Program-made: the position numbers and the translations under genes
Assembly (NCBI RefSeq): GCF_022045235.1
Contig: NW_027266297.1
Coordinates: forward strand, 43,648,001 to 43,712,000
From: Haliotis cracherodii
Taxonomy: Eukaryota
Direction of reading: 5' to 3'
Length of the DNA: 64,000 nucleotides
The notes under the pieces: generated by a model
What the model was told of the DNA's origin: nothing
Database searches by the model: none
The model's input: the letters and a program-made list of their open reading frames with translations, nothing else
In this document: positions 9,934 through 30,822 of the stretch, one piece after another
How positions within the stretch are numbered: position 1 is the stretch's first letter
How the letters are laid out: each line of letters opens with the position of its first letter

Positions 9934-10140
9934 TGCTGGCTTTGTCATCTTCTACGACTTCTTGCTGAACCTGGATACCAAGATAACAGCAGCCAGACTC
10001 ATTGTGGGCCTTCACAGCAGCACAGCCAAGATGGGTGAACCAACATACCTCCCCATGGTGTACACAGAACCGGCCACCAGACAACACCAGTATGTCGACA
10101 TCAGCAATGCTGTGATTGGTGCCAGACAGCCTGTTCCAAG
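9934..10140 (+). CDS. CCDC17: CCDC17-like exon A (AGFVIFYDFL...RQPVP)
   Basis: ccccag acceptor, gtgagt donor at 10141; phase 2 at both ends. Confidence 0.88.
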
Positions 10141-13100
10141 GTGAGTTTATACATACACATTCCTAGAACCTGTCACCAGACAACCTCAGAACATTGACAT
10201 CAGCAATGCTGTGATTGGTGCCAGACAGCCTGTTCCAAGGTGAGTTTATACACACACATACCTTGAACCTGTCACCAGACAACAACAGTTTGTTGTGATT
10301 TGGGCCAGAGATAGATTCTTGTAGGATTTGGACAGAGGTACTCTATAGAACTTTAAATCAAATCATGAAAGGCAGCCCAAGATGCCCGAAACTCAGCCCT
10401 GGATTGGTCTCGAGACTTTGCTTGTTCGTCTAAGTAATCTTGTTTGTTGTGGGTTCATGTCAGTCATGAAACAAACAGTTCTCTGATTAGCCTCTATGTG
10501 TTCTTCGGCAATCTTCTTCATCTTTTCATTGTGCTGTTGCCTTTGTTGTCCATGTGTATGATATGTTGCCCCAAATGTGTCTACAGATGTCCTCCCCAAC
10601 AAGACCTGGGTATTGTGCTGTAGCCTTGATGTTCCATGTGTATGATATGTTGCCCCAAATGTGTCTACAGATGTCCTCCCCAACAAGACCTGGGTATTGT
10701 GCTGTAGCCTTGGTGTTCCATGTGTATGATATGTTGCCCCAAATGTGTCTACAGATGTCCTCCCCAACAAGACCTGGGTATTGTGCTGTTGCCTTTGTGG
10801 TCCATGTGTATGATATGTTGCCCCAAATGTGTCTACAGATGTCCTCCCCAACAAGACCTGGGTATTGTGCTGTAGCCTTGGTGTTCCATGTGTATGATAT
10901 GTTGCCCCAAATGTGTCTACAGATGTCCTCCCCAACAAGACCTGGGTATTGTGGTGGAGCTTCAGTGCCAGGGTGGCCCAGCGTCAGACCACGACACACA
11001 GCGACTCATCACACGGGCGTGGACCAAGATTCCACTATTTGATTCTAATGGCAAACTGCAAGCTGGCAGATTCAAGATTCCATTCAGGAATGTCCCAATC
11101 AAACCTTTCATGACCTTCAACGAGCTCAACACAGTACCTCCAGTAAGTTAAACGGTGTGAAATCCCAGCACCATGGTATATTTACTGACATTTTACATGC
11201 TTGAACCTGTTTGAAACTTTTAGATGAACAAGTTTTGGTGAGGTGAGGTGAAATGGGGTTTAACGTAGCGTTCAAGATTATGGCATTTATATAGCGACAC
11301 GTGTATGTGTGTGTGCGTGTGTGCGTGTGTGTGTGTGTGTGCGTGTGCGAGAGCGCCGCAGTTTAACATGAATACCCCACTCAGACACTGTATACTGACT
11401 TCGGGCCGACCAGTCCTTGTTTTAGCCCCTTAATGTCATGCGCCAGACAGGGTAATGACAAGTTCCATCCTTTAAAGCCATTTGGTATGACGTGACCGGG
11501 GATTGAACCCCGGACCTTCCACGCTCTACGACTAGACCAAGGAGGTGGTCCGAACACATTTGGAATTTGATGACTCCTCATTACTATTTCTACGTCTTCA
11601 TATCTATGAATGCTTATAGATTAAGAATTTCCCTTGTTCAACAAGTGCCTTAATGTTAACCCGAAACAAGAGTTGTATATTTTCATGGGTACAATTTTCA
11701 TATTTCTCACTTTTTGTATGAATGAAAACTTATAAGTGATGTCATTAAACCCTATTCAAGGAAGGGAAAAGCAAATATTACAAATCAGACTAACACCTGG
11801 TCTCTGAAATGAAAATATTTTACAGAAAAAACAGTTATCAAATTATCTAAAAAAAATATAATAAAAAGGAGCCCAGAGACTAATCTAGACTTGCATGCGC
11901 TGTCAGGCTCTGTATGACAGACTAATTACAAATATGAACAACAAATTCAAACATTTTGGGACAAAAGGGTCATAAAACCACCTTCAGCTCTCTCCGCTAA
12001 CATGAATTCCAAATAGAAAATTCTTCATCATTGACAAATACTTTTCTCCTTCCCCAATGTGTCGATCCCATGTTTTCAGTATGCCGATGCAGAACTCTTC
12101 TATCGCATCGTCCACATGCGTGATGTGCCGTCTCAGTCTCAGTCTACCATTGCCGCCAACAACAGGGATCTCTACAGTCTGGCTCCCCAGGTAGACACAC
12201 AGACTGTCTTCTGTAGTGATTGTTGTCCAGCAATAGTGACAGTACACAGTAATTGTAGTGTTACTTGAAGTGAGATTATATGAAGAGGACCAAGAATTAA
12301 CTGTACTCTCGAAATCGAAACTGTGAATCACTTCCCCTAGCCTTGTCAGGATCTGCTGATTTTGGATTGAAGACAAGTTTTCACACAAGTAGTAAATGTG
12401 TGTTTGACATTTGTTGTTTTGGAAAATATTTGGAAATACTGACTTGATCATTGAGCCTGTTGCTTTTGATTTGTGATTCCTGTTCGACCGAAATATTCAT
12501 GTCTTCTCACCGCAGTTAGTGTTAAGAATAAGAAAGTGCACTATCACAGAGTGACCACACTTAGATATTGTTGGAAGGCACTGTAGCACTCACCATAGAA
12601 CTGACAAACCTTGTAACTCACGGATCCTGCATAAAAGAACAGTAGGCATGTTCCGCAACGAAGTAATTAACTGATGTGAAGTTGTGATAGTTAATAACAA
12701 AGAAATTAACTGATGTCAAGTTGTGATAGTTAATATTTTATTAAGTACTTAATCACATAACCCATTCACCCTATGATGACATTGAATTTCTATGCTTGAA
12801 TTAACAACATATTTTATAATGAATTTAACAAATGAATTAACCATGTCTTATTAACAGTACCCTTCACCCCAGTAGCATGTCACAGATATGATGTATAACT
12901 GCATTATAACTGTAAACAGTGAGAATCTTTGAAAATTCCAGATTTGTCTGTAACTTAAAAAAATATTTACAGTGTTCACAATTCTATTATTGTCTACCAA
13001 GTAATTTATATCTAAGTTTAAATGTTCAGAAAGAAATGTAACAATTGTTAACCAGCTTGAGGATCTGTACTTTGTATCTTTGCAGGGAGGGATGATCCTG

Positions 13101-16100
13101 CATCAGCTCCCTGTATCTCCCCACCAAATCCCCCCACCCCCCTCGGCCTCACCCCCTCTAACCCCCAACTACCACTCGCCAAGGAGAAGGTAGGGACATA
13201 CACTTTTTTCAAACTGTAGTTGGCAGCCTCTAAGACAAATTCTGAATATAAGAAGTTTGTCTCCTAAACTGAAATTGTTTTGTTTTCATATAACATAGAA
13301 TAAGATATTTAAAAAAGTCTTCACCAGATTTGACAAAAAATATTTTTGGATATTTCGGGGAGATACAATGGCGACCAGGCAAATCACCCTCAGCTTGTAG
13401 TTATATAGTTCTAGTTTCACGTCTTCATAGAAAAGAGTGTTGCAAAAATATTTATTTCATGTTTGTGATGCTTACATGAAATGTATGTATTCTGTTTGAT
13501 GTTCTTTTTGTAACATGAATTTCATATCCTAATAAGAATTCTAATAATAATTATATGCTTTGGGGCATTGATACAGCACAGAACAGATATGCAATTGTTA
13601 TTATTGTTGTTATTATTGTTGTTTCTGTTGTCCTGTAATTACTATTTGCTAGATCAGACACTATAATATAGGGCTGGGTCGAGTCCAAATTTACTACCCG
13701 GGTACCAACCACCCTATTACCCGACCCTACTCGGGTACCCGTTGTTTATATTTAGAGATAGCTACAAACTATCCGATTTGGAAACATTTGACCATAGCCC
13801 TGGCAAAATGTATTTAGATACATGTGTAAAATGATCTGGTCATGCATACACTGAAGTTTACTGCATGGAGTTTTATCTTTATTCGATCACATAAAAGTCA
13901 GAAGAAATGGGTGCATTGTCAGAAAGAAATGGGAACAATAGTGACTTGTAGTGGAACCATAGAGTTTTAGGTAATTTTTGTCATTAAACAATATATCACG
14001 TGACTAACCAAGGGTCCGGGTAGTCCTGTGGGTACCCGAGTCGTACTCAGTAACCACCCGGCCCGGGTACCCGAGTTACCCGTCCTAGCCCTACTATATT
14101 AAGTGTCATTATTAAGTTTTATTTGTATTAACATATACCAAAGAAATCAATATTCCATGCACTACAGAATTTTTACTGAAATGTTCATGTTTTAGGTCAA
14201 TTTTTACCATATCTTGATATGCCCCAGTAGCAGTGACATCACAGTGATGAGTTTTTGCTATTTGTCTCTATCAGTGCATGTATATGTGTATGTGTCTTGC
14301 AGCAGCCGACAGCAGGAGGTCTTTCCGCCTATTAGATCGGGGGGCACGCCCCTGGAGCCCACCCTCGGGTTCCAGGTGGACCGCATCAAGCATGCGGACT
14401 CTGGGGAGGGCAAGGTCAGACTGACCGCCTACTACAAGTCTACTGGGAAGGTCAGTCCATGTCATGTCCACTGTGTGAAATATTTGTTCTTCTGTCACTG
14501 ACATTTCACTGTCATTAAGCGAACACAGGTGGCTGTGGCGCTATTAAGAGTTGTGTCCCTTCGCAGTGCCAGGATCTGCTGATTTACCCAGCTGGGCTTT
14601 CCTCCACATAAATCTGACATGCTGAGTGATAAAACTGAAATAGTAATATTGAACTCATTTTGCTTCATCAAGTAATGTCGAAAGAAAGAGTGAGTGAGTG
14701 AGTGAGTTGGGTTAAATGCTGCTTTCTACAGCATTCCAGTAATATCACGGCGTGTCAGCTTAATGTGGGAGGAAAGCCCAAAGTGACTTCAGTGAAACCT
14801 ACCAGCACGGATATGGTGCTGACAAACCTAGAAACATAATCAGGGCGATCCGGGATTCGAACCCACAATCATAGGTTTCTGGCGTGCCCAAGGGATGCAA
14901 CTCTGCACAGCAAGTCGCGGCACCTTAGACAACTGGGCCACCCATGCCCTCTTCGAAAGAGATAAATTATGTTACGTTAAAAGGACACATACTTCTTGTA
15001 ACTTCTTTATGTTGCTCTGAATGTTTTATTTGTCTGTTTCAATTTCTGTGATGGAGGATGTGGCCTAGTGGTTCAAGTGTTGGCTTATCACACCAAAACC
15101 CCATTAGTGGTGTTTAACACCATGCTATTGCTGGAAAAGTGGTATTAAACCTCATTCACTCACATGCTTTAAATGAAATTTTGGTCGAATGTACAAGTAC
15201 TTAATATTTGCATATAAGTTTTTGTCATAATATCGCATATATTATTTGTATGTAATAGGTATAAGTCGAGAAAGGATAGCACTGACCTGGCTGGATTGGT
15301 GTGTCATCTTACCCAAACAACACAAATCAATGTCTTGCCTCCATGGACTTGATCTATATACTTAATCAGTCACCTCACCCTCACATCATGGGGTTCAAAG
15401 AGGAATAAACATTTATGACCTGTGCCAATTTGGGCTGTTTTCCAGCATTAAACTGTCAGGCTGAGATATTACTGAAACAGGACTGCCTCGATGGTCTAGT
15501 GGTAGAGCGTCCTCCCAGAAGTGTAATGTTCAGGGTTTGTTCCCCGGCCATGTCACACCAAAAGAAGTTAAAACATGGTACTTGTTATTACTCTGCCTGG
15601 CGCACATCATTAGGGGCTTAAAAAAGAACTGGTCGGCTCACACACACACACACACACACACACGTATCTACATAAGTGCAATCATCTTGACACGATGTTA
15701 AACCCCATTTCACCTCACCTCACTATTACTGAAAGAAACCCAACTCACTCAATTGTTTGTTTGATCATGACATTATTTTACATCCAGGTTGTACAATCCA
15801 GCACTAGTCCTGTGACCTGCAGTACGACGGCTGTACGCTCTAACTTCAAGCATGGCTACCACGTGTTTGGGCAGCAAGAAGCAACATTCCAGGATGTAGC
15901 ATTCCAAGGGGACATGATTCTTATCGCTCGATTCTATCTACGAAAGAAACTCGGAGGTTACGTGGATGACCTTTACCTTGAGCCTCACTCCCAGGAGGCA
16001 TCTCTGTACGACGAGGAAGCTCTAATTGCGTGGACTGCGATCCCACTGGTCATCTCACACATCAGAGGTGAGGACAGAGTTCGGAGGAGTCATAAATCCG

Positions 16101-19100
16101 GGAAAAGTTGTGGAATTAAGTTTCAGTTTCCAAAGTTGTAAAAGTCATGGAAAAATTATATATTCATACCAGTTATATTTTTCTGGTGAAATATCAATGG
16201 GAGGAAAATTATACCATTGGCAAGCCCCTCCCAAAGTTTGTTTTGGTTGTTGTGATTTTTATTGATACAATATCATTGAAATCTGGCATGATACCTTGGA
16301 AAAGAGGAGGAAGTGCTTCAGGCTAATAGTGTATGAAATCTGTAAGAAAGACACTTAAGCCATCCATGTTTTGGGTGGACATAATCACAGGCAAAACTGG
16401 GATCATATGAATTAATTATGTCAATTATAAGGTTGTGTGTTTTCATAATCTAAAGCTGTAGGAATCAATATGAACCCCTTTGCACTACAGCTGACCTTCA
16501 TTTTGCATAGAGGGGCAGTGGGATAGCTTAGTGGTTAAAGCTCTCACTTATCACACCATAAGCCTAGGTTCAGTTCCCCACTTGGGTGGTACAGTGTATA
16601 AAGACCAGTGCGTGTCCCTTGCCACAATAATGCTGGAATATTGCTAAGAGCAGCTCAAAACACTTCTCACTCACTCATTTTTGACAGCAAGTAAAATAAC
16701 TAAAAATAATCATACAAATTATCTCCCTTAGTTCTTGCGTCTTTTGATCTTACTCTGTCTTTAAATTCCAGATCTCTCCTCTCGAGAGCGCCGTGAGTTT
16801 AACCCTGCTCTCATGAGGATAAACAATGGCACACACACACTCAAACTCTTCGCCCCACCAGTACCCGAGGCATCTCGCCTCCCACTGGAAGACTTCAGTT
16901 TACATGATTATAAAAGATATGGCCGTGGATCATTGAGAATTCATATTTTCCATGGCAACCCAAGACCTGGCTCACTGACACCTAGCGACATTTCTGATGA
17001 TCAGGAGGACAATCTACCCGAGGTAGGAATGTTGCAGTTCTTTTGCCAACAGATTAGTTTTGGTATGTCCATCGGAAAAGAGTTTGTTCTCCTTGTTAGA
17101 TGTCTTTCTGCAGTGGCTGCATTAAAAAAAACATGTTTCTGAGGCACATTTTTTTCAAAGTGATGAGAGCAGTCAGACATTTTTCCTTTTTTCTTATTGA
17201 AAACAAAAGTGAAGAGGGAGGAACACTATTTTATTTTGTCCTAAACCTAAACCTAAAACCTAAAGAATGACACTTCATGAGTATATCGTATCCATCCAAA
17301 ACAACAAGTTCAAATTTCAGTTTGTTTGCATCAGTTATATTTGACTGCAGGTGATTAATCCGTAAGTCAAATACAAATATAACAGTATATAAAGTGTCAC
17401 TGTCCCTGTCTTTCAAGAATGATCAAGTGATCAATTACAGGTTATGAACTTATTATGAACCAGATCATTGTGTAATATGTCAGAACAGGTCCCAGTATCT
17501 GATGCTGATGTTGCCCCGTGAAGATCCGGGGTAGAATAGGTCTTCAGCAACCCATGCTTGCCGTAACAGGCGACTTCTTCTCGTAACAGGCAACTAACGG
17601 GATCGGATGGTCAGGCTTGCTGACTTGGTTGATGCATGTCATCGATCCCAATTGCGTGGATTGATGCTCATGATATCAATCACTGGATTGCCTGGTCCAG
17701 ACTCGAATATTTACTGACCGCCGTCATATAGCTGGAATATAGCTGAGTGCTGTGTTAAACAACAAACAAACAAACATGACAGTCATCTAATATGAGGATC
17801 AGGTGGGTTAAATGTGTGACCTGATTGTGTGTCGTACCCTGCTGACATGGGTCCTGCTCATGCTCTCAAACTCCCATTGCCCTGGCCCTGGCCCTGGCCC
17901 TGGCCTTGTTTTCTTGCTGCTCTCATAATGCTGGAATGTTGCTGACTGTAGTGTAAAACAGCATTCACTCACCAACTCGATCACTCCAACTGTGTTCCCA
18001 CATGTTCAGGCAGCAGTCATGTATAGTGATGACTTTGTCCCCAGTATGCCTGGCTGCCCTATGAGAGGAAGAACCCACCCACAGAACCCTTCATGGCCGG
18101 AGATGGCTTTGATGTCTACATTGATGGCTGTCGATACCTGCCAGACTCAGTCACATTTTCTAAGGTAGGAAACTAAACAGTTCAAAATCAGAGGCCTGTT
18201 AAAGGGAATCAGTTGTGTAAAATCTGAAAAAATATCTAAACCCAAAAGCTATAAAATTATTTCATAGTAAAACTATATCAGTAACAAATTGAACATAAGG
18301 TCCTGATGTGTGCCACATTTAAATAATGAAATAACAGGATGGTGTTTGCTAGATCAAGTGTGACTAGTTTAGGGAATGAAGAATAATTAATTTGTATTAC
18401 CTGAATTTTGGGGAGGCAGCATTGAAAAGGCCTTGAATTTTTGTATGGACCCTGCTCTCTCAGCTGTGACTGGCTGATGAAGTGTGATGTAGTACCCTGC
18501 TGGTAAGATATAATCTATGAAGATCACAAGTTATGTGTATGTTCCCAGGTCGCCGGGCGTATCCTTGACCGTCGCTATGACGTGCACGGCAAGGACATCT
18601 CGACCGGGGTGAAGTTGGACAGTGACAGCTACAACCCGGTATACGAACACAAGGAGGAGTACAGGCTGCCCACCGTCGCACCCTCCTCCACACTGCTGCT
18701 CAAGGTAACACTGCAGGGAGCTTACAGTCACCCATAGAACCAGAGAACCTTGACTACATGCTGTGTTTGAAAATAAGATTAATCTTAAACCGAATTGATA
18801 GTCTCTAAATTTCAGTGTGAGGTTTCAAATGATTAATATGGACACTATCACTTCAGTCTAACATTAATCTAATTTTCAAACACAGTACGTTTATCTCCAT
18901 TCTACCATGACCGATTTAAAATCGAACTCCTTTGTTCCGCGTAATCCGGATGGCACGAGAGGCAAATTGAACATGTCTGTGAAAGGGGAGGTAGGTGTCT
19001 TTCGTGTTTTTTTAACATTGTAATGTGAAAAAATATTCATCCAAAGAAAAACAACTATTTGTTCAATGCAACAGTTTTTTATGCTGTAACAGCTTGGTTA

Positions 19101-22100
19101 TATAAACCCTCCAATCCAGCTTACTGTTTGGTGTGTAGTCCTGTACCCCCTGCCAACACAACATGGAATATCCCACATGGATTTCACGTGCCTCTACCCC
19201 GGCATGCAAACAAAAGAGTGACAGTGGTGGCCGAGTGACAGTAGCAGTTTAGTGTATGTCTTTTTAGATCGAACAAACACATACTACGGGGTTGAGGTCT
19301 TTATTGCGATGCGTTGAGTGTGATAAGGATCTATATATCATACACCCTGAAACACATAATTACACAATAAATACTAAGTTAAACATTATCATTAATGCTA
19401 GATACATAGCATAGGCTTATTACAAGTAAATATTTACATTTATCAGTCATCCATTAAACATAAGATAGACTTAACCTTAAACGATTATACCAGAACATAT
19501 ACAGTAATATGCATGATCAACAATACCGACATTCAAGGGAGATAACGCCTTGACTTTCTTTTGACTATAAGATATACACATAACGCTTACACATTCTGCA
19601 TCAACATATACAATACTTTAAGACAGAAATTAATGACATGATCTTACATTAAATGTGGTCATCACAATTAGATTACATTGTAAGTCTTAGACAAATATAA
19701 ATAACACAATGCATACCCTGTGAGTGATACAAGGGTGTGGGTCCCAACTGCCACACGTATGGCAATACCATAGATTATCTGAATAAACAATACATAGACT
19801 AAAACACTATTTAACATTAAATAAATTGAACAAAGTAATACACACGTTTCATTGATAAAGTATGGGTGTTTAGCTTATCTTAAGCAGATTTAAATATTTA
19901 GACATAATCAACATTTAGGTTACATTACATACATTTAGTTTACTTCATATAACACTTTAAACATACTGTATTATTTAAATACAACATAGGATAGAGATTA
20001 TAACCATTTAACTCACCTGATTTAATATTGTCTCTTTACACTTTGCTGGTCTGAGCAGTTCTGTCAGTTTATGTGCTGAGAGAGTATGCAGTGTAATCAA
20101 AGCATGCAGTTTAACAATAGGTGTTAGCTTGGCCAATCAGCAAATGAAGCTTCTGGCCATGGGGCAGTTAGTAGGTAAGACAGGTCAGATACTCTTTGTT
20201 ATAGCTGACTGAAACGGACAAATAGTTATATATAATAAATATACGTAAAAACCTAAAATGAAATTAAAACAAATATATACAAAAACTACATCGGCCACAC
20301 TAATGCAATGATTTGTGTAAATGCAACTAACTTGGGATTCCTTGGATATTGTTTTCATCATTTGGGACAGAGGATATGTGGCCAAGCAGTTTTAAAGTAT
20401 ACCAACACGGAGCACCAGCAGTGACAGTTTTGCAGGGACGCTGGTAGAAAGCAGGATTCTGGTGGTTCAATTTTGACATGTATTTTTAGAAAGATGGAAT
20501 AGGGTACGAGGGAGTATGAGTGGCCTAAATTTAGGGTTTTACCTGACTCTTATCTTGCAAGTCCCCTGGATGACTTTTGATTGATTCCGAATGGGTCATT
20601 GTAATAAATTCTATCCCAACATCTGATTTGACCACAAATGATTTGTATAAGTGCACAGTGAAGCATTCATAATATCAGATGCATTTTTCAATCCAAGTTG
20701 ATTCTGTCTTATTTTATTGATTGTCCAATTGTAGCAGTAGTGAAGTCATCCCACAGATGACATCCTTCCCTTGTCAGCTTGCTGACGGGGTTAACCTTTT
20801 TGGTCATGTGGACATGGCGTCCGACCTCGGATCAGAAGGTCCGTGGTTCAAATCCCATCACGGGACTCGAAAATTTTATGGCCGCTACACAATCAAATTG
20901 AAGTATTTCACATAGTTATGGTAGAATATAGAATTGTGCTTTGTTAGATAATTATACACATAGATTAGGCCTCATAACAGACCCACTTTCCGGGACAATC
21001 ATTAAAGAATGGCTAATGAGTTAAGTGGCTCTCTAGATTATCTGTCCATTATTAAGTTGTTGCAAAATTTGAGGGACAGATACTGAATTATTCTATCATG
21101 ACTTCAAGAAATACTCAAATTTATTTAGACAATCATTAAAATCACAATAAAATTAGACATCAATTTGGATTGCAAATGGGTTTGATTTTATGACTGCTTC
21201 ACTGCACACTTGCACTCATGACAACACTGTTGCACTACAACAGCACCACAGCCAGTAAGAAGCACTGGCGGATGCAATAGTATATCAAAGAACGGAAGTT
21301 TAGTGGTTTGAATTCCCTGGCTGTGTCATAACAAAAGATGTTAAAAGATGGTACTTGCTGTTACCTTGCCTCAGCATTAAGTGGATAAAACAAGAACTGT
21401 TCGGCTCAGAATATAACGTGTCTGAGTGGGTTATCCATGTAAAACTGCAGCAATGTATCTCAGTGGGCTAGCACTATGAAACCAACATTCCTCTGAACTA
21501 GTAGAAGCAGCCACATGCTAAATGGGTGCAGTAATCTTGAATGTGACATTAAACCACATTTCACCTCACCATTAGTATGTAGGTAAAGCAGATTTCATTT
21601 GCCGGAACAGGAAATAGTCACTTGGGGCTAAGTCTGGGCTGTACAGTTAAATCACCCACCCTACAGCCCAGACTTAGCCCCCAGTGACTATTTCCTGTTC
21701 CGGCAAATGAAATCTGCCCTACGTGGAAGATGCTTCCAGGATGACGAGGACATAAAGGCTGCCACAGAGGCGTGGTTAGAGGGCCAATCTGCGGATTTCT
21801 ATAAAAGTGGTATCAAAAGCTTGTAGTACAAATGGAAAAAGTTTATTGAGGTGAATGGAGATCATATTGAAAAATAAAAGTGCAAAAGATATTCTGCGAC
21901 ATAGTCTTATATTGAAGTTGCAAAACTAATTGAATGCCCCTCGTATATGTGAAGTTTGATGATGGACACGTTTGAAGGACAGTTCTTGTGATGGATAAAT
22001 GGGTGGTAATCATGAGAGGTTTGAATGACTTGTTCCAGATATATACCATGGACAAGTTCTACAAGAAGCTGACTGTGGTCGGGTATGCTACTCTCAACCT

Positions 22101-25100
22101 CTTTGTGGAGTCTGGATCGGAGAGACAACCAGCTATAGACAGACAGGGCTTACAGGTAGGACTTACATCTAAACACCCAGGGTGCGTTATTCAAAGCGAT
22201 CTTAGCGCTAAGGCGATCATGACTCCCATACCTTAACATAGACATACAACTGTCATAGCGCTAAGGTTGTTTCATAGAACATCATCCAGGTCCATCTGAC
22301 TGTACAGGCTTACAGGCAGGACTTACACCTGTACACCAATTTCTGTCATATCTCAGGGACTTGAACTTTGTTTAAGGAGTAATGTGTAAGCCTGTTATTG
22401 GCAATGAATATGCAAAATGAACATTAATGATGCTTTACTATTTCCTTTGATATACTTTATTCTTAGCCTCGCACAGCTAATTGTAAAAGGAATGGAAAAA
22501 AATGGAATCAAGGGGCCAAAACATGAGGTATCAAGAGCTTGAGAGCATGTGTATCAGACCTTTGCCATTAGTTTGTCAGTTGTGGACCTGTTTTTCAGGT
22601 TGGTTTGTCCTATGACTGAGTTATTGGAGACTACAACAAATAACATGAACTCACCAATCCATTCGGGGACATTGGTGGCCCAATCGTCTAAGGTGCCGTG
22701 ATTCGCTGTGCAGAGTTGCGTCCCTTGGGCACGGGCATGCCAGAAACCTATGATTGTGGGTTCGAATTCCGGTTTGCTCCGATATTGTTTCTAGGTTTGT
22801 CAGCACCATACCTGTGCTGGTGGGTTTCACCGAAGTGGTAAACTCGGAGACCTGTATCACTTGGGGCTTTCCTCCCACATTAAGCTGCCACGCCGTGAGA
22901 TAACTGGAATACTGTTAAAAGCGGTGTAAAACTCAACTGACTGACTCACTCACCAATCCATTCATTGTTTTTAGAATCAGTAATGTAGCTTAACACCTGA
23001 CTGTGGCTGCAGGTGTCCCTCAACACAGGTGCCCACCAGCTGAGGGTCTACAACCAGGGACCTAATGGTGTGGACCCGTTCTCCGACACCTCCATGAGGA
23101 CCAACAACACCAGGTTTGTGCCCTGTACCTCCATGCTGGTCCGCATCACCAAGGTGCCCAAAGGCCCTCAGGGAAAACCACTAGAGGTAAGGGACTGACC
23201 ACAGGATTGACCAGCTGATATTCTGGGTGGAGGCATGGGAGTTATTTTAAAATAATTTGTTCCACAAAGTACTAGGGAAATAACATTGCCTCAAATTTTA
23301 TGAAAAACTATAATTATTCACAGGACATGCTGAATGTCTTGGAAAAGATTACTTGCAAGAAAAAATTATATTGTTTGGCACTTTCTTTTTTTGGAAATAA
23401 AATGCAGGTTTTGATGCAGTGACTACAGAGTATAAAATGATCCCTCCCTGAGTAAGAGTCATACACCAGATGAACAATATACTGGATTAATATTCCTCTC
23501 AAAAGAAATACACATTTAGACTTTGTCATGATAGTGATGGTCTTGCTTGTACTTTCAACATGCATTAGATGAACATTTCAAACAGATGGTTTGAATTCCT
23601 GTAATTGAATTGTTTACCATCATATTTGTTGCAGTGCAGCAAAGTGCCTCAAGCAGACTGGCTTCGGTTGGGCCTGTGGCAACCACGACCGAAGTACTCA
23701 GACCGTATCTACTATTCCATGAAGTGTCTGCCCACGAAGGGCGAGAGCAAACTGTTCCATGGTTTGATGAAGAGGACGCCCATCTCTGTGAGGCAGGCTG
23801 TGGCCAGGAACACACAGGCCAAGGATAGCTTCCTCCGCAGCGACAAGAACATGGAGCAGTACATCAGGGTGAGGATATGCTGGGTGAACTAACAGAGCAC
23901 TGTTGGGTACGCACGGTGAACTAACAGAGCACTGTCAGGTACGCACGGTGAACTAACAGAGCACTGTTGGGTACGCACAGTGAACTAACAGAGCACTGTC
24001 GGGTACGCACGGTGAACTAACAGAGCACTGTTGGGTAAGCACGGTGAACTAACAGAGCACTGTTGGGTACGCACGGTGAACTAACAGAGCACTGTTGGGT
24101 ATGCATGGTGAACTAACAGAGCACTGTCAGGTATGCATGGTGAACTAAAAGCACTGTCAGGTATGCATGGTGAACTAACAGAGCTCTGTCAGGTATGCAA
24201 AGTGAACTAATAGCAGTGTCGGGTATGCACAGTGAACTAACAGAGCACTGTCAGGTATGCACAGTAAACAAACAGCACTGTCGGGTATGCATGGTGAACT
24301 AACAGCGCTGTCGGGTAAGCTTGGTGAACCAACAGCACTGTTGGGTAAGCTTGGTGAACTAACAGCACTGTCGGGTAAACTTGGTGAACAGATCACGGTT
24401 GTTCTGTCAACTTCTTGTCCAGCCTACATTTAGTCAAAGGGAAAATTCCCAAACAGGGATTCCCTCATAGATTGATGTTCACCTGGGTTGCGTGTGTTAC
24501 AGAATCAGCTGACAAAGTCCATGGATTCCAAGCCTCTGGAGCAGGACCTCAACTTCATCGCTGAGTACAGCCCCAAGCATGGTGTCAAGGTACAGACTTT
24601 TGTCTATTTTCCTTTGTCCAAGTCTCTTGCAACAGATTTGTGTTGTTCATACCAAATTAATTATCTCTTTTAATGCGTTTTCATTATAACATATCATTTG
24701 GACCTGCAAATTCCCTGTAGAATCTGATACTCAATCTTATCTGTACTTCATATGCAGAATTGGATTGTGAAATGGAAAAATCTATTTATTTATTTATCAA
24801 GAACTACAAAATTACATACCTTGCAGATACCAGTAGAATCTTGCATCAGGGATGGTTGGAAGACAAACTTGGGGTCCCTCAAGGGCAATTACTCACCCCC
24901 AAACTTTTATACATGAGTTAGCCCCAATGGGCTGATGCATGTGACACTATGTATTGTTATTGCATTATTTGTGTGCTTGATGTTCCTCATCGTTGTTTGT
25001 TGTACAGGTGGCTTTAGACAGCGCCGTCAATCTGCCGTGGTCCAACTTTACCCACTGTCACATGTGTCTCAACCCACCAGGAGCATTCTACTTGGTGAGT

Positions 25101-28100
25101 GTAAAGAGGGACTCTTAGGGACTGAGACACTGTTGTTGACCTGCTCATTAAGGGACTGGTATGATAAGGGTAGTTTTAACCCACAGGATCTGCATGATTA
25201 AAGAAATGTGCAAAACTTTTAGAAATCATTCTGAAAGTTTTGAGATGAGTTCATATGAATGAGAATAGGACTTCATTTCAACACCTGCATAGCAACACTA
25301 AATGTGTAGCTCAGGGTTAACATGAGTCAAAACAGATGAAATAGGGTCAAGAAGCGTGTTTCGGGGGGCGGTCGGGGAGCCTAGTGGTTAAAGCGTTTGC
25401 TCGTCACGCCGAAGACCCAGGTTTGATTCCCGACATGGGTACAATGTAGGAAGCCCATTTCTGGTGTCCCCCACCGTGATATTGCTGGAATATTGCTAAA
25501 AGCGGCGTAAAACCAAACTCACTCACTCACTCACTCCACTGAGTTGATTTTCACAGAAGCTATAGATAAAGACAGTACAGTATATAAAAGTAAATCTTGG
25601 CTCATAATTAAATCGTTTCTTGGAAATAGTTGTTATTGTTCTTTTTCACTCATTTTAGCCATACTACTGTTAGCCCACAATTGATTATAGCAGAAGCACA
25701 CAATTTGCAGGTGTAAGAAACTATGTGTAGTTATCAGCCATTTGAGTATGTCTGACAATGTTCATAAATGTCTGTGGTCCACCTCCATGGACTAGTGGTA
25801 GAGCGACTGTCCTGAGAGTGGAAGGTGTTTTTTTTTATCCCAGGCTGCGTTATACCAAAAGATGTTAAAAGATGATACTTGTTTTTACCCTGCCTGGCGC
25901 TCGGTATTGAGGGGTTAATACAAAGACTGACTCAGAGTCAGTATACTGTGTCTGAGTGGGATATTCATGGTAAACTGTGGCATGGTATCTCAGTGGGCTA
26001 GCACTATAAAATTGGTATTAGTCTTGACTATTATAAGCAGTCTGATACACTCACACACATGCAGCGGTAGAAACTAACCGTTTTAGTCCACTAGTCCTTA
26101 TGATGATAACATATAGCAAAGCCCTTGAAAATGACAAATTTCTACCAGTCCTTATGATACCTTAACTATTGGGCAGTTTGGACTATAGGACTAGTGCCAA
26201 TTTCTAATGACACGCATGCATACACTCGCAAAACAAGTGCAGTAATCTTGATCTCTGTAAAGATCTGGTTTAGAAAAGGTCTTCAGCAACCCATGCTTGC
26301 TGTATGAGGCAACTATGCTTGTTGTAAGAGGTGACTAACAGGATCGGGTGCTCAGACTCACTGACTTTGGGACTTTGGGACGCATGTCATCGGGATGCGG
26401 TGTGTGACATCATGGATCATTGCTCAGGCTATCAACCAGCAAGCAAGCACATGTATTTTGTCCTCTCTAACCAAGTTTCCTGTGTTCCATGTTACAGGGA
26501 ACACCACATGCAACCTATGACAAGTTGACATTCACAGAAAACCTTGACCTTCGTAGCACCAACACGTCACCTGCCTGGAGAGATGGGTTCAAGGTCAGTA
26601 TAAACCCTTAACTTGCTCTATTCAACCAGTATGAGATATGATATGATGCGTTCGAATATGGTTCTGTCTCCAGTGTGTAGGTCACAATATCCCCAGGGAG
26701 CTGAGAATGAAAATCTGTTGATCCAATAATGGTCTCTAGCGCCATGTGCTTTCACTTGGTGGATGGAATTTGGTACATTATGAATGGACTATATTACTTT
26801 TTGTTTCTTAGAAATCTTTTATTTAAACATTTGTGCAACCTATAACTTAAAACAATACTGCATAGATTATTTTCAAATTTACCAAGAGTTTCCATACTAT
26901 TAGAACAGGTGCAGTGCAAAGTTTGATTTTGTTTTTTGGATTTGAACTGCTTCATGGATTCTTTTCCAATTGAGGGGTACAGATTCTATACCAATAGGAG
27001 AAGTGCTGGGCATTAGTCGATTTTCTGCGAAAATGTTGCTTTCCTTTCTTGTTTTGAACTTAGAAATATGTCAAAAGTCAGTATTAGTGAGCCCTGATCA
27101 CCTTTTGCTTTGTTATTAATGTTATTAAGTATCTATGCACTATACCGGGTTATTATCATGATTATGGTAACAGTTAAAATACTGACCCATTGATGATAAT
27201 GAAGTTTATTGAAAAACATATATAAGACCCTGTTTACAAAAAACTGATGCACTGTAATGAAGCCTGTTTTGTATTCAGCACTTTCCGCGCCGCTCGTACC
27301 ATCGGTTCCTGACGGCCGTGATCCACCTGCAGGAGGTGTTTGTCACTGTCTCCCGGGACAACTACAAGTATGGTTTACTGGAACAGGTCAGTGGAGGTCA
27401 AGTCATGACATTACCTTTGTTTAGGAACAGTGTTCGAAATAAGTGCCTGCCTATAGGCCTGTGGCAGGTAGATTTCATATCGGGCCCGTAGTTTCAAATT
27501 CGTATGGGTCCTTATGGCCTTCAGTAAATTTACGTCTTGATTTATCTGTCACAATAAGCTGCATAGATTTTTACGATGAGGGCCTGAAGAGTTTAGTCAG
27601 GGCCCGCAGCTTTTGGAGGTTATGGGTCATGATGGCATCCTGACAAAAAAAAATTCAAACACTGTTTAGGAACCTCCTCAGATTTCTCCTATTGTTTTCA
27701 GAGGTTCAAATATTCGTACATTGACCTCTAATGATCCTCATTGCTGGGTTGAAGTCTAAGTTGCCTCTGATTGGGTATTTGTCACCTGTATTTTAACCTG
27801 TACCTCCTCTGAAGTTAGTCTGTATGAATACAAAAAAAGCCATGCTTTGGAAATGTTAGAATCTATTAGAGCTATTTTTCTCAACTCTTTTTCTGTGTTA
27901 TAGGCATGGACAGCAGTACAGATGTTCAAAGACAAGTATGCCTACACCACAACATTCCAGCTGCCGCTGTTTGCTGGCTCACCCTCCCCACAGATGCTCA
28001 AACAGATGGCTCGGGAGCCGTGTCGGGAGTGGATGGAGAGGAACATCAGGAACAATACTGTGAGTACCAAGAACAATACTGGCACAGGGAGGGAAGGCTT

Positions 28101-30822
28101 TATTACCAGGAACAGGGAGGGAAGGCTTTAGTACCAAGAACTGTACTGGCATTGGGTGGGAAGGCTTTAGTACCAAGAGCAATACTGGCACAGGGAGGGA
28201 AGGCTTTAGTACCAGAAACAATACTGCCGTAGGGAGGGAAGGATTTAGTACCAGGAATAATACTGGGATAGGGAGTGAAGGCTTTAGAAACAGGAACAAT
28301 ACTAACATAGGGAGGGAATGATTTACTACCAGGAATAATACTGGCATAGGGAGGGAAGGCTTTGGAAACAGGAACGGTACTGGCATAGGGAGGGAAGGCC
28401 TCAGTACCAGGAACAAAACTTGCACAGGGAGGGAAGGCTTCAGAAACAGGACCAGTACTACCATTGGGAGGGAAGGCTTTAGAAACAGGAACAATACTGG
28501 CATTGGGAGGGAAGGCTTTAGAAACAGGAACAATACTGGCATAGGGAAGGAAGGATTTAGTACCAGGAACAATACTGGCACAGGGAGGGAAGGCTTTAGT
28601 ACCAGAAACAATACTGCCATAGGGAGGGAAGGATTTAGTACCAGGAATAATACTGGGATAGGGAGGTAAGTATTTAGTACCAGGAACATTACTGACATAG
28701 GGAGGGAAGGCTTCAGAAACAGGACCAGTACTACCATTGGGAGGGAAGGCTTTAGAAACAGGAACAATACTGGCATTGGGAGGGAAGGCTTTAGAAACAG
28801 GAACAATACTGGCATAGGGAAGGAAGGATTTAGTACCAGGAACAATACTGGCACAGGGAGGGAAGGCTTTAGTACCAGAAACAATACTGCCATAGGGAGG
28901 GAAGGATTTAGTACCAGGAATAATACTGGGATAGGGAGGTAAGTATTTAGTACCAGGAACATTACTGACATAGGGAGGGAAGGCTTTAGAAACAGTAACT
29001 GTACTGGCATAGGGAGGGAAGGCTTTAGTACCAGGAACAGTACTGTAAGTACAATGCCAGTGATGAAGAAATGCTGTGAATACAGTGAACACCAGAAACA
29101 ATTCTTGAGTGCAGGGCACAAGTTTATTATTACCAAGAACATGACTAGATCGAGAACAGTAGTTGAGTTTGCATGAAACAGCTGGGACAAGATGGAGAAG
29201 ACTATTGGTAATGATGGAGCCTGTCTTACTTACAGATCAAGTTGATAGAAGGAGCATCCATATTTGTGCGAGTCAGTGACGGAAGACGAGAGGATGAGCT
29301 GATCACTGATATCCCCACAAACAAACTGGTCAGTTGATGGTAGAATATGATACACTCTCAGAATAAGTTTATTATATACAAATTGCAGTATGGTTCAATC
29401 TGCTTTGACAAGGCAACCAGACATTGTACCTTTTTTTAATTAAATCATATCTGAGGACATTTCTGGTCCAAGCTGAATCTTGAGATATGTTTAAATCAAA
29501 GTCACCTTTGAGCCTTTTAGTTTATGCTAATTTGAATTCCATGTATTGATTTTCTGAATATTTGGTATCTTATATTTACTACTCACCTTTCAATAGAGAT
29601 ACACACTTATTCATTCTATGTATATATATTCATGTAATAAGAAATCGGTTTGGTGTAGCCTGGAAAAGTTTTTAGGCCAAATGATTTGTATCAAAGGTTG
29701 AGTAGTATTTTCTAGTGAGGTTTGAGAAGTTAATTCTAGCTGAGACAGGAACAAGTAGAAGTTTGCTTCGAATACTATCATAAATATATGTGACGTCACT
29801 CCAGGTTGAGATCAACATGGACTACATCCCGAACGGTGTGAAGGAGCAGTACTCCCGAGAGAGGCCTGGCCGGCCGACGGCCACGCTGGTACCCACTGGG
29901 AAAAGCCCGGAGCAGTTTATAGAGGGCCTCAGCACCAAGTTCAAGAGTGTAAGGATAGGTTTCATCATGTCAACTTGCAGAAAAAGAGCTGTTTAATATA
30001 ATGAAAACACATTACGTTATGATCAAACAAAATTATCATTTACTAGCAAAGAAATACTAACTGTTGGTAAATGGTAGATCACATTTGTGTATTGCTTGCA
30101 TCACTAATTTACTGTTTTAAGCAGTATCCCCCTTTGTTACAAGGTTTCCATATTATACTGATTGTTTTTTATTATTTTTCTGGTTAATTTTAAAAGATGA
30201 GGCAAGTGAAATGGTGTTTAACATCATGTTCAAGATTATTGCACTTATTAAACGACGTGCATGTGTTTGTGTGGCTGCTTGTACTAGTTGAACTGATGCC
30301 GAGTGCTTGCCCAATATATTATAGTGCCTGCCCACTGAGATACCATGCAGCAGTTTAACATGGATGCCCACCTCATACACAGTACTCAGACTGTCTCCGA
30401 ACCAACCAGTCCTTGTTTAGCTCCTAATATAATTTTGAGCGCCAAGCAGGGTAACAACAAGTACCTTCTTTTAACATCTTTTTGTATGGTTCGGCCAGGG
30501 AACCAACCACTGACATTCTGTTCTCTGGTCAGGTGCTATTTCCTCTAGACCATGGAGGCAGTCAGGGACACCCATATAAGATTCAAACTATGTGTGTTCT
30601 TTGGCAACCAGAATTAGAATTCTTTGTGGTATAACGAAAGGCAACATTCTCTGTTTCACAACAGTATAGTTTTGCAAGAGTCGTTATTGCCCCAGAACCC
30701 ATCAGGGTCTTCTTAGTGTTAACTGTGACCAGAATTACTGCCACGTCATCACACAAATATGATATTGTTTGTTACAGTTGGTGTACAAACTGTATGAAGA
30801 AGGAAACATCTCCAAGAACTAG
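9934..30822 (+). CDS. CCDC17: CCDC17-family protein with a long C-terminal extension (four predicted C2-like modules); 20 coding exons, 5'-incomplete, about 978 aa in window
   Basis: Exons 9934-10140, 10923-11142, 12080-12190, 13086-13189, 14303-14450, 15788-16067, 16772-17022, 18045-18164, 18549-18704, 22039-22155, 23013-23186, 23635-23868, 24503-24589, 25008-25094, 26498-26593, 27279-27386, 27904-28059, 29236-29328, 29805-29948, 30778-30822. All are AG/GT-bounded and phase-compatible, giving one open frame to TAG at 30820-30822. AGFVIFYDFL...RQPVPR...VELQ...RAW..PLFD...GRFKIPFR...AELFYRIV matches my recollection of the conserved CCDC17 C-terminal region. Symbol is family-level. Confidence 0.85.
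10062..10290 (+). repeat. 99-bp tandem duplication of exon A 3' end plus donor site (about 2.3 copies)
   Basis: gacatcagcaatgctgtgattggtgccagacagcctgttccaag|gtgagtttata repeated, donors at 10141 and 10240. Confidence 0.9.
10528..10952 (+). repeat. 84-bp minisatellite, 5 copies, spanning the exon B acceptor
   Basis: Acceptor AG ends at 10586, 10670, 10754, 10838, 10922 (exact 84-bp period). Confidence 0.97.
10923..11142 (+). CDS. CCDC17: CCDC17-like exon B (CPPQQDLGIVVELQ...NTVPP)
   Basis: Last of five repeated ctacag acceptors and the only one giving an open frame; gtaagt donor. Confidence 0.85.
12080..12190 (+). CDS. CCDC17: CCDC17-like exon C (YADAELFYRIVHMRD...)
   Basis: ttttcag / gtagac, 111 nt, phase 0-0. 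Confidence 0.85.
13086..13189 (+). CDS. exon D, proline-rich linker (GGMILHQLPVSPHQIPPPPSASPPLTPNYHSPRR)
   Basis: tttgcag / gtaggg; its phase 0-2 is required to join exon C to exon E. Confidence 0.75.
13669..14093. mobile_element. hAT-type MITE (partial second copy at about 53350-53540)
   Basis: TIR tagggctggg / cctagcccta, 8-bp TSD ctataata / ctatatta, multiple subterminal ACCCG/CGGGT motifs. Confidence 0.85.
14303..14450 (+). CDS. exon E (...LGFQVDRIK...YYKSTGK)
   Basis: cttgcag(cag) NAGNAG acceptor / gtcagt donor. Confidence 0.8.
14689..14950 (-). mobile_element. tRNA-derived SINE family A
   Basis: A box (GGTGGCCCAGT..TCTAAGG), B box (GGGTTCGAATCCC), (CTCA)n tail. Confidence 0.85.
15788..16067 (+). 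CDS. exon F (VVQSS...IAWTAIPLVISHIR)
   Basis: catccag / gtgagg, 280 nt, phase 0-1. Confidence 0.85.
16772..17022 (+). CDS. exon G (LSSRERR...GTHTLKLFAPP...EDNLPE)
   Basis: attccag / gtagga, phase 1-0. Confidence 0.85.
18045..18164 (+). CDS. exon H (YAWLPY...GFDVYIDGCRYLPDSVTFSK)
   Basis: tccccag / gtagga, 120 nt. Confidence 0.85.
18549..18704 (+). CDS. exon I (VAGRILDRR...STLLLK)
   Basis: ttcccag / gtaaca, 156 nt. Confidence 0.85.
19240..20299 (-). mobile_element. Second copy of the solo-LTR-like element
   Basis: Colinear with 57224-58497, same cggccaca end, minus-strand AATAAA near 19301; TSD not evident. Confidence 0.72.
20802..20865 (+). pseudogene. tRNA-Arg(UCG)-like fragment (pseudogene or SINE head)
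   Basis: ggcg-tccga-cctcgga-tcaga-aggtccgtggttcaaatccc resembles anticodon and T arms; acceptor stem and D arm do not pair. Confidence 0.5.
21647..21945 (+). mobile_element. mariner transposon 3' remnant (transposase pseudogene fragment plus right end)
   Basis: Translates LNHPPYSPDLAPSDYFLFRQMKSALRGRCFQDDEDIKAATEAWLE...FYKSGIKSL*YKWKKFIEVNGDHIEK*; YSPDLAP(S)D is the mariner signature; ends ...gaatgcccctcgTA. Confidence 0.92.
22039..22155 (+). CDS. exon J (IYTMDKFYKKLTVVGYATLNLF...GLQ)
   Basis: gttccag / gtagga, 117 nt. Confidence 0.85.
22178..22290. mobile_element. Small palindromic MITE, about 110 bp (relatives at about 32620-32717 and 56168-56275)
   Basis: cttagcgctaag...actcccatac.ttaacatag core shared by three loci. 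Confidence 0.6.
22665..22949 (+). mobile_element. SINE family A with 14-bp TSD
   Basis: TSD tcaccaatccattc at 22651-22664 and 22950-22963. Confidence 0.88.
23013..23186 (+). CDS. exon K (VSLNTGAHQLRVY...KPLE)
   Basis: gctgcag / gtaagg, 174 nt. Confidence 0.85.
23635..23868 (+). CDS. exon L (CSKVPQADWLRLG...MEQYIR)
   Basis: gttgcag / gtgagg, 234 nt. Confidence 0.85.
23883..24390. repeat. 32/30-bp minisatellite, about 16 copies
   Basis: GGTGAACTAACAGAGCACTGTTGGGTACGCAC; starts about 14 bp after the exon L donor. Confidence 0.95.
24503..24589 (+). CDS. exon M (NQLTK...YSPKHGVK)
   Basis: gttacag / gtacag, 87 nt. Confidence 0.8.
25008..25094 (+). CDS. exon N (VALDSAVNLPW...NPPGAFYL)
   Basis: tgtacag / gtgagt, 87 nt. 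Confidence 0.85.
25367..25535 (+). mobile_element. Short tRNA-derived SINE family B (further copies at about 9148-9275, 15053-15165, 16511-16677)
   Basis: AGCCTAGTGGTTAAAGCG A box, GGTTTGATTCCC B box, tail shared with family A. Confidence 0.8.
25781..26250 (+). mobile_element. tRNA-derived SINE family D, Meta/MESC-like central domain (further copies at about 11240-11550, 15483-15722, 21295-21570, 30210-30560, 35779-36125)
   Basis: CTAGTGGTAGAGCG A box; central ataccaaaagatgttaaaagatgatacttg...cctgcctggcgctc; tail aaccccatttcacctcacc in other copies. Domain name is from recall. Confidence 0.72.
26498..26593 (+). CDS. exon O (GTPHATYDK...SPAWRDGFK)
   Basis: gttacag / gtcagt, 96 nt. Confidence 0.85.
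27279..27386 (+). CDS. exon P (HFPRRSYHRF...GLLEQ)
   Basis: tattcag / gtcagt, 108 nt. Confidence 0.85.
27428..27664. mobile_element. hAT-type MITE
   Basis: TIR cagtgttcgaa / ttcaaacactg, perfect 8-bp TSD tttaggaa at 27420-27427 and 27665-27672. Confidence 0.88.
27904..28059 (+). CDS. exon Q (AWTAVQMF...FQLPLFAGSP...NIRNNT)
   Basis: gttatag / gtgagt, 156 nt. Confidence 0.85.
28045..29052. repeat. 39-bp minisatellite, about 25 copies, with a 273-bp higher-order duplication
   Basis: AGTACCAGGAACAATACTGGCATAGGGAGGGAAGGCTTT; the variant gcttcagaaacaggaccagtactacc recurs 273 bp apart. Confidence 0.96.
29236..29328 (+). CDS. exon R (IKLIEGASIFVRVSDGRR...)
   Basis: cttacag / gtcagt, 93 nt. Confidence 0.85.
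29805..29948 (+). CDS. exon S (VEINMDYIP...KFKS)
   Basis: actccag / gtaagg, 144 nt. Confidence 0.8.
30778..30822 (+). CDS. terminal coding exon (LVYKLYEEGNISKN*)
   Basis: gttacag acceptor, in-frame TAG. Confidence 0.7.
   Translation: MVYKLYEEGNISKN

Follow-up and report, generated by a model that had tools for sequence, protein, structure and literature searches.

Proteins that join a coiled coil to several C2 domains are already known at cilia. CCDC33 and the Tetrahymena protein C2D1 combine a coiled coil with three divergent C2 domains and are linked to motile cilia, and the C2 domains of CCDC33 are reported to be needed to organise the tip of the motile cilium (PMC12796433). In RPGRIP1L, an N-terminal coiled coil is followed by three C2 domains. 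Old ciliary C2 types, RPGRIP1L among them, are described as not calcium-binding in the 2012 survey of ciliary C2 domains (PMC3495828), where the name CCDC17 occurs 0 times. CCDC17 is itself a named family, of which Pfam names only the first of the modules described below. The long CCDC17 of abalone is similar in design to CCDC33 and C2D1 and, by description, to RPGRIP1L; it differs from CCDC33 and C2D1 in having four predicted modules behind an N-terminal rod, again as judged by description. Unlike RPGRIP1L/RPGRIP1 and the NPHP4 group, likewise compared by description, it has no classical PKC-type C2 domain in the middle, and unlike PI3K and DOCK it has no kinase or GEF part.

The gene lies in a stretch of 64,000 nucleotides from the genome of Haliotis cracherodii (hereafter the window; coordinates count from its first base). 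The CCDC17 model spans 9934-30822 on the + strand in 20 exons (A to T), and all of its introns are of the GT-AG type (19/19). Its translation, 978 aa uninterrupted by any stop, is identical at 978/978 positions to residues 470-1447 of P0001, a 1447-aa abalone protein labelled uncharacterised by its source, whose first 469 aa map to 11 matching blocks located 4.8-32 kb upstream of the window. A search of the abalone's own genome with three exons returned one match per exon. The initial annotation had placed the end of the gene at 29328, which is wrong, as the coding sequence runs to 30822 and exons S and T had been omitted. The four-fold motif pattern that it had read in a 978-aa translation was borne out: the 16 quoted motifs were all recovered on the + strand, 14 of them whole in one frame and two split by introns, and the spliced translation holds them in the quoted order. 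An artefact of motif picking was rejected.

Module 1 (P0001 residues ~468-628) is encoded on the + strand, as are all parts of the model, by exons A (9934-10140), B (10923-11142) and C (12080-12190), and is the part common to all short vertebrate CCDC17 proteins. Exon D (13086-13189; 104 nt) encodes a proline-rich linker between modules 1 and 2 and ends in phase 2; its counterpart in an orthologue model is a low-confidence linker with pLDDT < 50. Exons E (14303-14450), F (15788-16067) and G (16772-17022) encode module 2 (~700-892), the most divergent of the four, and exons H (18045-18164), I (18549-18704), J (22039-22155) and K (23013-23186) encode module 3 (~924-1092), which is the best conserved among distant eukaryotes. 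A conserved linker of three helices, modelled with high pLDDT, connects modules 3 and 4 and is encoded by exons L (23635-23868) and M (24503-24589). Module 4 (~1198-1374) takes its first residues from exon M and the rest from exons N (25008-25094), O (26498-26593), P (27279-27386), Q (27904-28059) and R (29236-29328). The helical C-terminal tail, which forms a terminal helix in both structural models, is encoded by exons S (29805-29948) and T (30778-30822, stop included).

The identification as CCDC17 held: in its rod and module 1, P0001 is homologous to proteins that bear the name CCDC17, and it has precomputed matches to both PF28455 (CCDC17_C) and PF28454, the two Pfam entries of the family. 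At its N-terminus lies a Cys/His motif, a candidate for the zinc-finger-like motif of the family (zf-C2H2, E 0.016, below the cut-off), followed by a charged region that its composition and weak matches to coiled-coil chains suggest is a coiled-coil rod. Turtle CCDC17 aligns with P0001 at 34.7% identity over residues 7-1415 and at 41% over 700-1447 (E 4.7e-171). The "C-terminal" family PF28455 follows module 1 only, modules 2-4 having no precomputed family, and it is missing from proteins that lack module 1 (P0010, P0012, P0020, P0022). Pfam scans covered 19 exons taken one by one, 6 complete proteins and 20 members of the alignment; in none of these did a C2 family exceed its cut-off, and the classical Pfam C2 family gave no match in the sets of 6, 20 and 25 proteins scanned. 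For PI3K_C2 (PF00792) and DOCK-C2 (PF14429), P0001 stayed below all Pfam cut-offs (exon B, 15 bits against 26.4); the weak PI3K_C2 matches fall on the W-x-x-h-P-L-F strand, and one of 25 distant relatives passed the PI3K_C2 cut-off (P0211, module 4, 38.2 bits). A profile search of the sequences of solved structures returned weak coiled-coil matches only and none over the C2 region.

The modules resemble one another. Profile comparison by hhalign, based on module alignments of 61-68 rows, gave E-values of 1.8e-7 for M3-M4, 1.4e-6 for M1-M4, 1.6e-5 for M2-M3, 4.2e-4 for M1-M2, 4.3e-4 for M2-M4 and 0.014 for M1-M3, with alignments of 45-150 columns, whereas nine control pairs involving the coiled region or the 3-4 linker gave 0.0086-0.89 over at most 20 columns. 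The proposed self-similarity is thus supported for the six module pairs as a set, while M1-M3 taken alone has an E-value no better than the best control. All four modules open with a conserved glycine, and the first strand of each ends in a conserved aspartate (D477, D709, D936, D1209).

Folds were modelled on two orthologues standing in for P0001. The bivalve protein P0014 is collinear with P0001 residues 466-1446 (65% identity), and its AlphaFold model (pLDDT 89.1, pTM 0.70) contains four strand-rich domains; the model of P0198, which holds modules 3-4 only, reaches pLDDT 94.5 and pTM 0.91. This last value predicts a single rigid unit made up of modules 3-4, the helical linker and the tail; modules 1 and 2 are by contrast predicted to be attached by flexible linkers. 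Against 48,161 solved chains, module 1 matched best the C2 domain of AIDA (Z 13.4, rmsd 2.3, 133 residues aligned), with PI3K and Dock180 also found, module 2 matched otoferlin C2A (Z 11.5, rmsd 2.5, 119 aligned), module 3 matched Dock180 DHR-1 (Z 10.3, rmsd 2.9, 142 aligned) and AIDA (Z 10.3), and module 4, covered alone in 2 of 50 structural-match rows, matched the C2 domain of PLC-beta2 (Z 9.4, rmsd 2.9, 120 aligned). The eight-stranded beta-sandwich is predicted four times in the orthologue models and each module superposes on solved C2 domains, as the initial annotation had proposed, so that P0001 is predicted to carry four C2-fold modules. The PI3K/DOCK type that it had named also agrees with the best single-domain fold matches of these models, namely AIDA-C2, PI3K-C2 and DOCK DHR-1 (Z 10-13, rmsd 2.3-3.2, 6-23% identity). 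The nearest named Atlas look-alikes are clusters of NPHP4 C2 (0.93-0.94), followed by AIDA C2 (0.87-0.90) and RPGRIP1 C2 (0.82), values that express feature likeness without alignment and serve as leads only. NPHP4 itself joins an NPHP4-type C2 domain to C-terminal Ig domains, whereas the P0014 model ends in helices and not in Ig folds, and membership in the NPHP4 group is therefore unlikely.

Assembled sequence contigs from four runs (X1, X3, X5 and X7), presumed to be RNA, were examined; exon joins were deduced from contig pieces and their spacing, the listed pieces running from exon B to L. Single contigs in three of the four runs (X1, X3 and X7, from three studies) bridge exons B to L in order, which indicates one gene. 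In X1 and X3 the B and F pieces lie 361 nt apart, equal to exons C+D+E, and the G and I pieces are separated by 120 nt, equal to exon H. Two genes, a CCDC17 reaching to exon D and a three-C2 gene of exons E-T, joined by gene prediction would account for the many vertebrate annotations that are split here, for the 752-aa proteins starting at module 2 among assembled transcripts (P0010, P0018) and for the break of run X5 at exon D. This explanation was rejected as extremely improbable, because the contigs of three runs bridge exons B to L, because the X5 break falls exactly at exon ends in the manner of a splice bubble, because contigs the size of a transcript carry full-length frames (P0025, for instance, has 1293 aa on 4365 nt) and because protists encode the whole protein in one frame. 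Separate genes for exons A-C and E-T, the outcome that would have spoken against the proposed four-module protein, were accordingly not seen.

The same contigs point to variable use of exon D within the single gene. In X7 the B-F spacing is 257 nt, which is 104 fewer and matches the length of exon D, and X5 holds two contigs, one whose end coincides with that of exon C and one that starts at exon E. Judged from these lengths and from the X5 break, some transcripts of two related organisms appear to skip exon D. In the window sequence, skipping would shift the frame and bring a stop 10 codons into exon E; the resulting protein, of about 659 aa, would contain no more than the rod and module 1, and such a message may be degraded.

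In vertebrates the family occurs in long, short and split forms. A quick tree of 53 rows, picked by hand from about 330, resolved two vertebrate clades of named CCDC17, with P0001 outside both and the lamprey unplaced: clade A (32 rows, support 99) holds sharks, teleosts, amphibians, reptiles and monotremes, while the 14 rows of clade B, likewise with support 99, are "CCDC17-like" proteins. All eight long vertebrate forms that were placed (two turtles, two toads, Mantella, gecko, alligator and bonefish) fell in clade A and none in clade B; a sturgeon protein has all four modules as well. Among the short vertebrate records listed, in a search limited to proteins of at most 805 aa, 119 of 120 carried module 1 alone. 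The short clade A proteins often end at the residue where the long forms continue, as seen in pairs from turtle, frog, fish and gecko, and in the alligator a 532-aa record ends DQR while a 1390-aa record reads DQS and then continues. This R-or-S ending fits a phase-2 splice donor, the vertebrate intron being deduced, and the mollusc exon D also ends in phase 2 after the same proline run. Modules 2-4 or 3-4 were found as separate unnamed proteins in alligator, bowfin, catshark, skate, lungfish, coelacanth and poison frog, and those of alligator, bowfin and catshark each lie on a contig equal in size to the one that carries the short CCDC17 of that species.

The initial annotation had suggested that vertebrate CCDC17 may be a truncated derivative. 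This is likely for mammals and for the second paralogue, but not for turtles, toads, gecko, alligator, bonefish and sturgeon, which keep all four modules; a truncation in vertebrates at large was rejected, as full-length or split four-module forms occur in many non-mammalian vertebrates, and the long form is therefore taken as the normal state of the family. The best 150 matches included 15 vertebrate-like ones with later modules, and none of the 14 checked was from a mammal or bird. The platypus and echidna records end after module 1 and sit on a long branch. Human CCDC17 is about 620 aa long, ends next to NASP and is not known to carry modules 2-4. CCDC17 and NASP are reported to adjoin from coelacanth to tetrapods (PMC4082323). 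Modules 2-4 were thus likely lost in the second vertebrate paralogue and in mammals, where clustering at 50% could hide a member, and mammals appear to keep the first C2 domain only.

The long form is spread far beyond molluscs. A search with P0001 residues 700-1447 returned 64 proteins from molluscs, annelids, nemerteans, a brachiopod, a flatworm, amphioxus, hemichordates, turtles, a frog and Thecamonas, and all four modules were present in 60 of the 68 proteins from this and one other search, as scored by profiles that derive from these very rows. When 1.84 billion representatives were searched with a profile, 2346 matched at E <= 0.001. Modules 1, 3 and 4 stood in order in 41 of the 135 distant proteins examined; named proteins with these three modules in order come from Thecamonas, Chromosphaera, Sycon, Microstomoeca, Borealophlyctis, Gefionella, Cyanophora, Rhodelphis and Emiliania. 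Module 2 was recovered in 20 of these 41 through five rounds with shuffled controls, from a seed that already had three distant rows, and was not found in the other 21 even after iteration. An extension specific to molluscs was rejected, since non-molluscan animals and protists also have four modules. As distant eukaryotes carry the modules in order, the four-module form predates animals, and the glaucophyte, malawimonad and haptophyte carriers suggest that it likely dates to the common ancestor of eukaryotes. The proposal of an ancestral multi-C2 form is in keeping with its presence in animals, an apusozoan, a glaucophyte, a malawimonad and others. To our knowledge, all the lineages listed for modules 1, 3 and 4 have flagellated cells, and every organism named among 30 relatives belongs, as far as we know, to a lineage with cilia.

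Two further observations concern the make-up of the family. Several distant proteins in which module 2 was not found (P0236, P0240, P0248, P0312 and P0225) have a spacer of 94-181 aa between modules 1 and 3, which leaves little room for that module, and may be natural three-module forms. Two neogastropod snails carry a second, divergent long copy (P0048 and P0051, 51-52% identity), Babylonia having in addition a copy of 71% identity (P0019); their lineage has thus seen a duplication of the four-module gene.

The link to cilia comes from papers on human CCDC17, a protein not known to carry modules 2-4, and from the kinds of organisms that carry the long form. Human CCDC17 marks ciliated tube cells (10.1101/672626, PMC13096173), and Ccdc17 is placed among cilia-linked genes in PMC12832812. 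Human CCDC17 is named a ciliary tip protein in PMC12700831, citing Blackburn 2017; the pull-down row behind this mention holds 2 peptides at a 1.6-fold ratio. CCDC17 is absent from the CCDC33/CCDC78 pull-down rows shown, where the rows are those of CCDC170, and 10.1101/153437 names CCDC170 only. We consider it fairly probable that long CCDC17 links membrane and microtubules in motile cilia independently of calcium. The predicted rod would dimerise or bind other coiled-coil proteins, one or more C2 domains may dock on acidic lipids without calcium, and the protein, perhaps sited at the ciliary tip or base, would hold the membrane of the motile cilium to a partner on the microtubule side; mammalian CCDC17 would then be a derived stub of rod and module 1.

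The C2 modules of a ciliary CCDC17 might instead bind protein, contacting the tubulin surface or partner subunits, with the rigid 3-4 unit as an axoneme- or complex-binding block. We regard this as rather unlikely, though it has several observations on its side. Tetrahymena C2D1 is located at the central pair of the ciliary tip, on the surface of tubulin (PMC11642885). The unit of modules 3-4 is rigid and highly conserved, and the modules, with net charges of +2, +3, +3 and +6, are mildly basic with no strong basic patch by sequence. The tandem-C2 chain of that tip structure, 9nw3_3A, is among the fold matches (Z 9.8-10.4), but with an rmsd of 23, and that match is generic, at 8-9% identity and with no sequence match. 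The nearest single-domain matches, moreover, are PI3K C2 and Dock180 DHR-1, which are lipid-binding C2 types.

A tether or calcium sensor of the ferlin or extended-synaptotagmin kind, working outside the cilium and merely expressed in ciliated cells, is to our mind improbable. Ferlins do come first among the whole-chain matches of Foldseek (E 4.5e-12 to 2e-8, TM ~0.1), as is expected for any multi-C2 chain, and by single-domain Z-score the best matches are of the AIDA, PI3K and DOCK types. Calcium-binding C2 domains of the PKC/synaptotagmin type carry five aspartates in loops 1 and 3; this pattern is complete in no module and at most partial in module 3, which retains D936, D943 and D1006, and no classical Pfam C2 match was obtained. 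Staining of human CCDC17, cytoplasmic and membranous in 10.1101/672626, would suit a tether of this kind, but a transmembrane tail is absent from both structural models.

Beyond the calcium-independent linker, which remains our preferred reading, we offer tentatively a broader one, in which CCDC17 is an overlooked four-C2 scaffold of motile cilia as old as eukaryotes. Its best-conserved part, the rigid C2-helix-C2 unit, would be hidden as an unnamed neighbour gene in most vertebrates and lost in mammals, and the one-C2 form would go back to an ancient switch located at one exon boundary, which would take the form of exon skipping in molluscs and of early termination in vertebrates and would have become fixed in mammals and in the second vertebrate paralogue. 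A literature search outside predicted-domain databases (InterPro, AlphaFold DB) and most subscription journals found no description of a C2 array in CCDC17, and where a paper and a preprint naming CCDC17 also use the words "C2 domain", other domains are meant. Within that scope, the four-C2 layout, the eukaryote-wide spread, the rigid 3-4 unit and the split vertebrate records were not found in print.

These results matter because CCDC17 serves as a marker of human ciliated cells, and a view of it taken from the human form misses three of the four domains. With the long form the family acquires a role open to testing, that of a membrane-microtubule linker like CCDC33 and RPGRIP1L, and the ciliary set of PMC3495828 would grow by four divergent C2 types. 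Frogs, molluscs and flagellates are tractable models with the whole protein, and the recurrent split annotation can be flagged in the genomes of fish, amphibians and reptiles. Should the most conserved half have been lost in mammals, CCDC17 would be a candidate for a change in motile cilia that is specific to them.

The window is rich in repeats, some of which touch the gene. A tandem 99-bp unit at 10066-10288 (2.3 copies) copies the end of exon A with its donor, and an 84-bp unit at 10528-10960 (5.2 copies) copies the acceptor and start of exon B, of which the contigs use the last acceptor copy. Upstream of exon A, a 38-bp satellite at 2123-7834, with well over 100 copies, takes up a large part of the intron and causes the strong negative GC skew. 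Two intronic minisatellites start just behind a donor, one at 23876-24377 (32-bp unit, 16 copies) and one at 28114-29045 (39-bp unit, 24 copies), and both give long open frames that do not belong to the gene. Very abundant dispersed intronic repeats, at run depths > 100,000, lie at 14700-14950, 17500-17760 and 22660-22950. The vertebrate neighbourhood of CCDC17 consists of NASP, GPBP1L1 and AKR1A1 (PMC4082323); the neighbour downstream in the window is a PAP2-family gene of the lipid phosphate phosphatase type, two exons of which lie at 45469-48593 on the - strand (Pfam PAP2, E 3.3e-12 and 0.0013), tail to tail with CCDC17.
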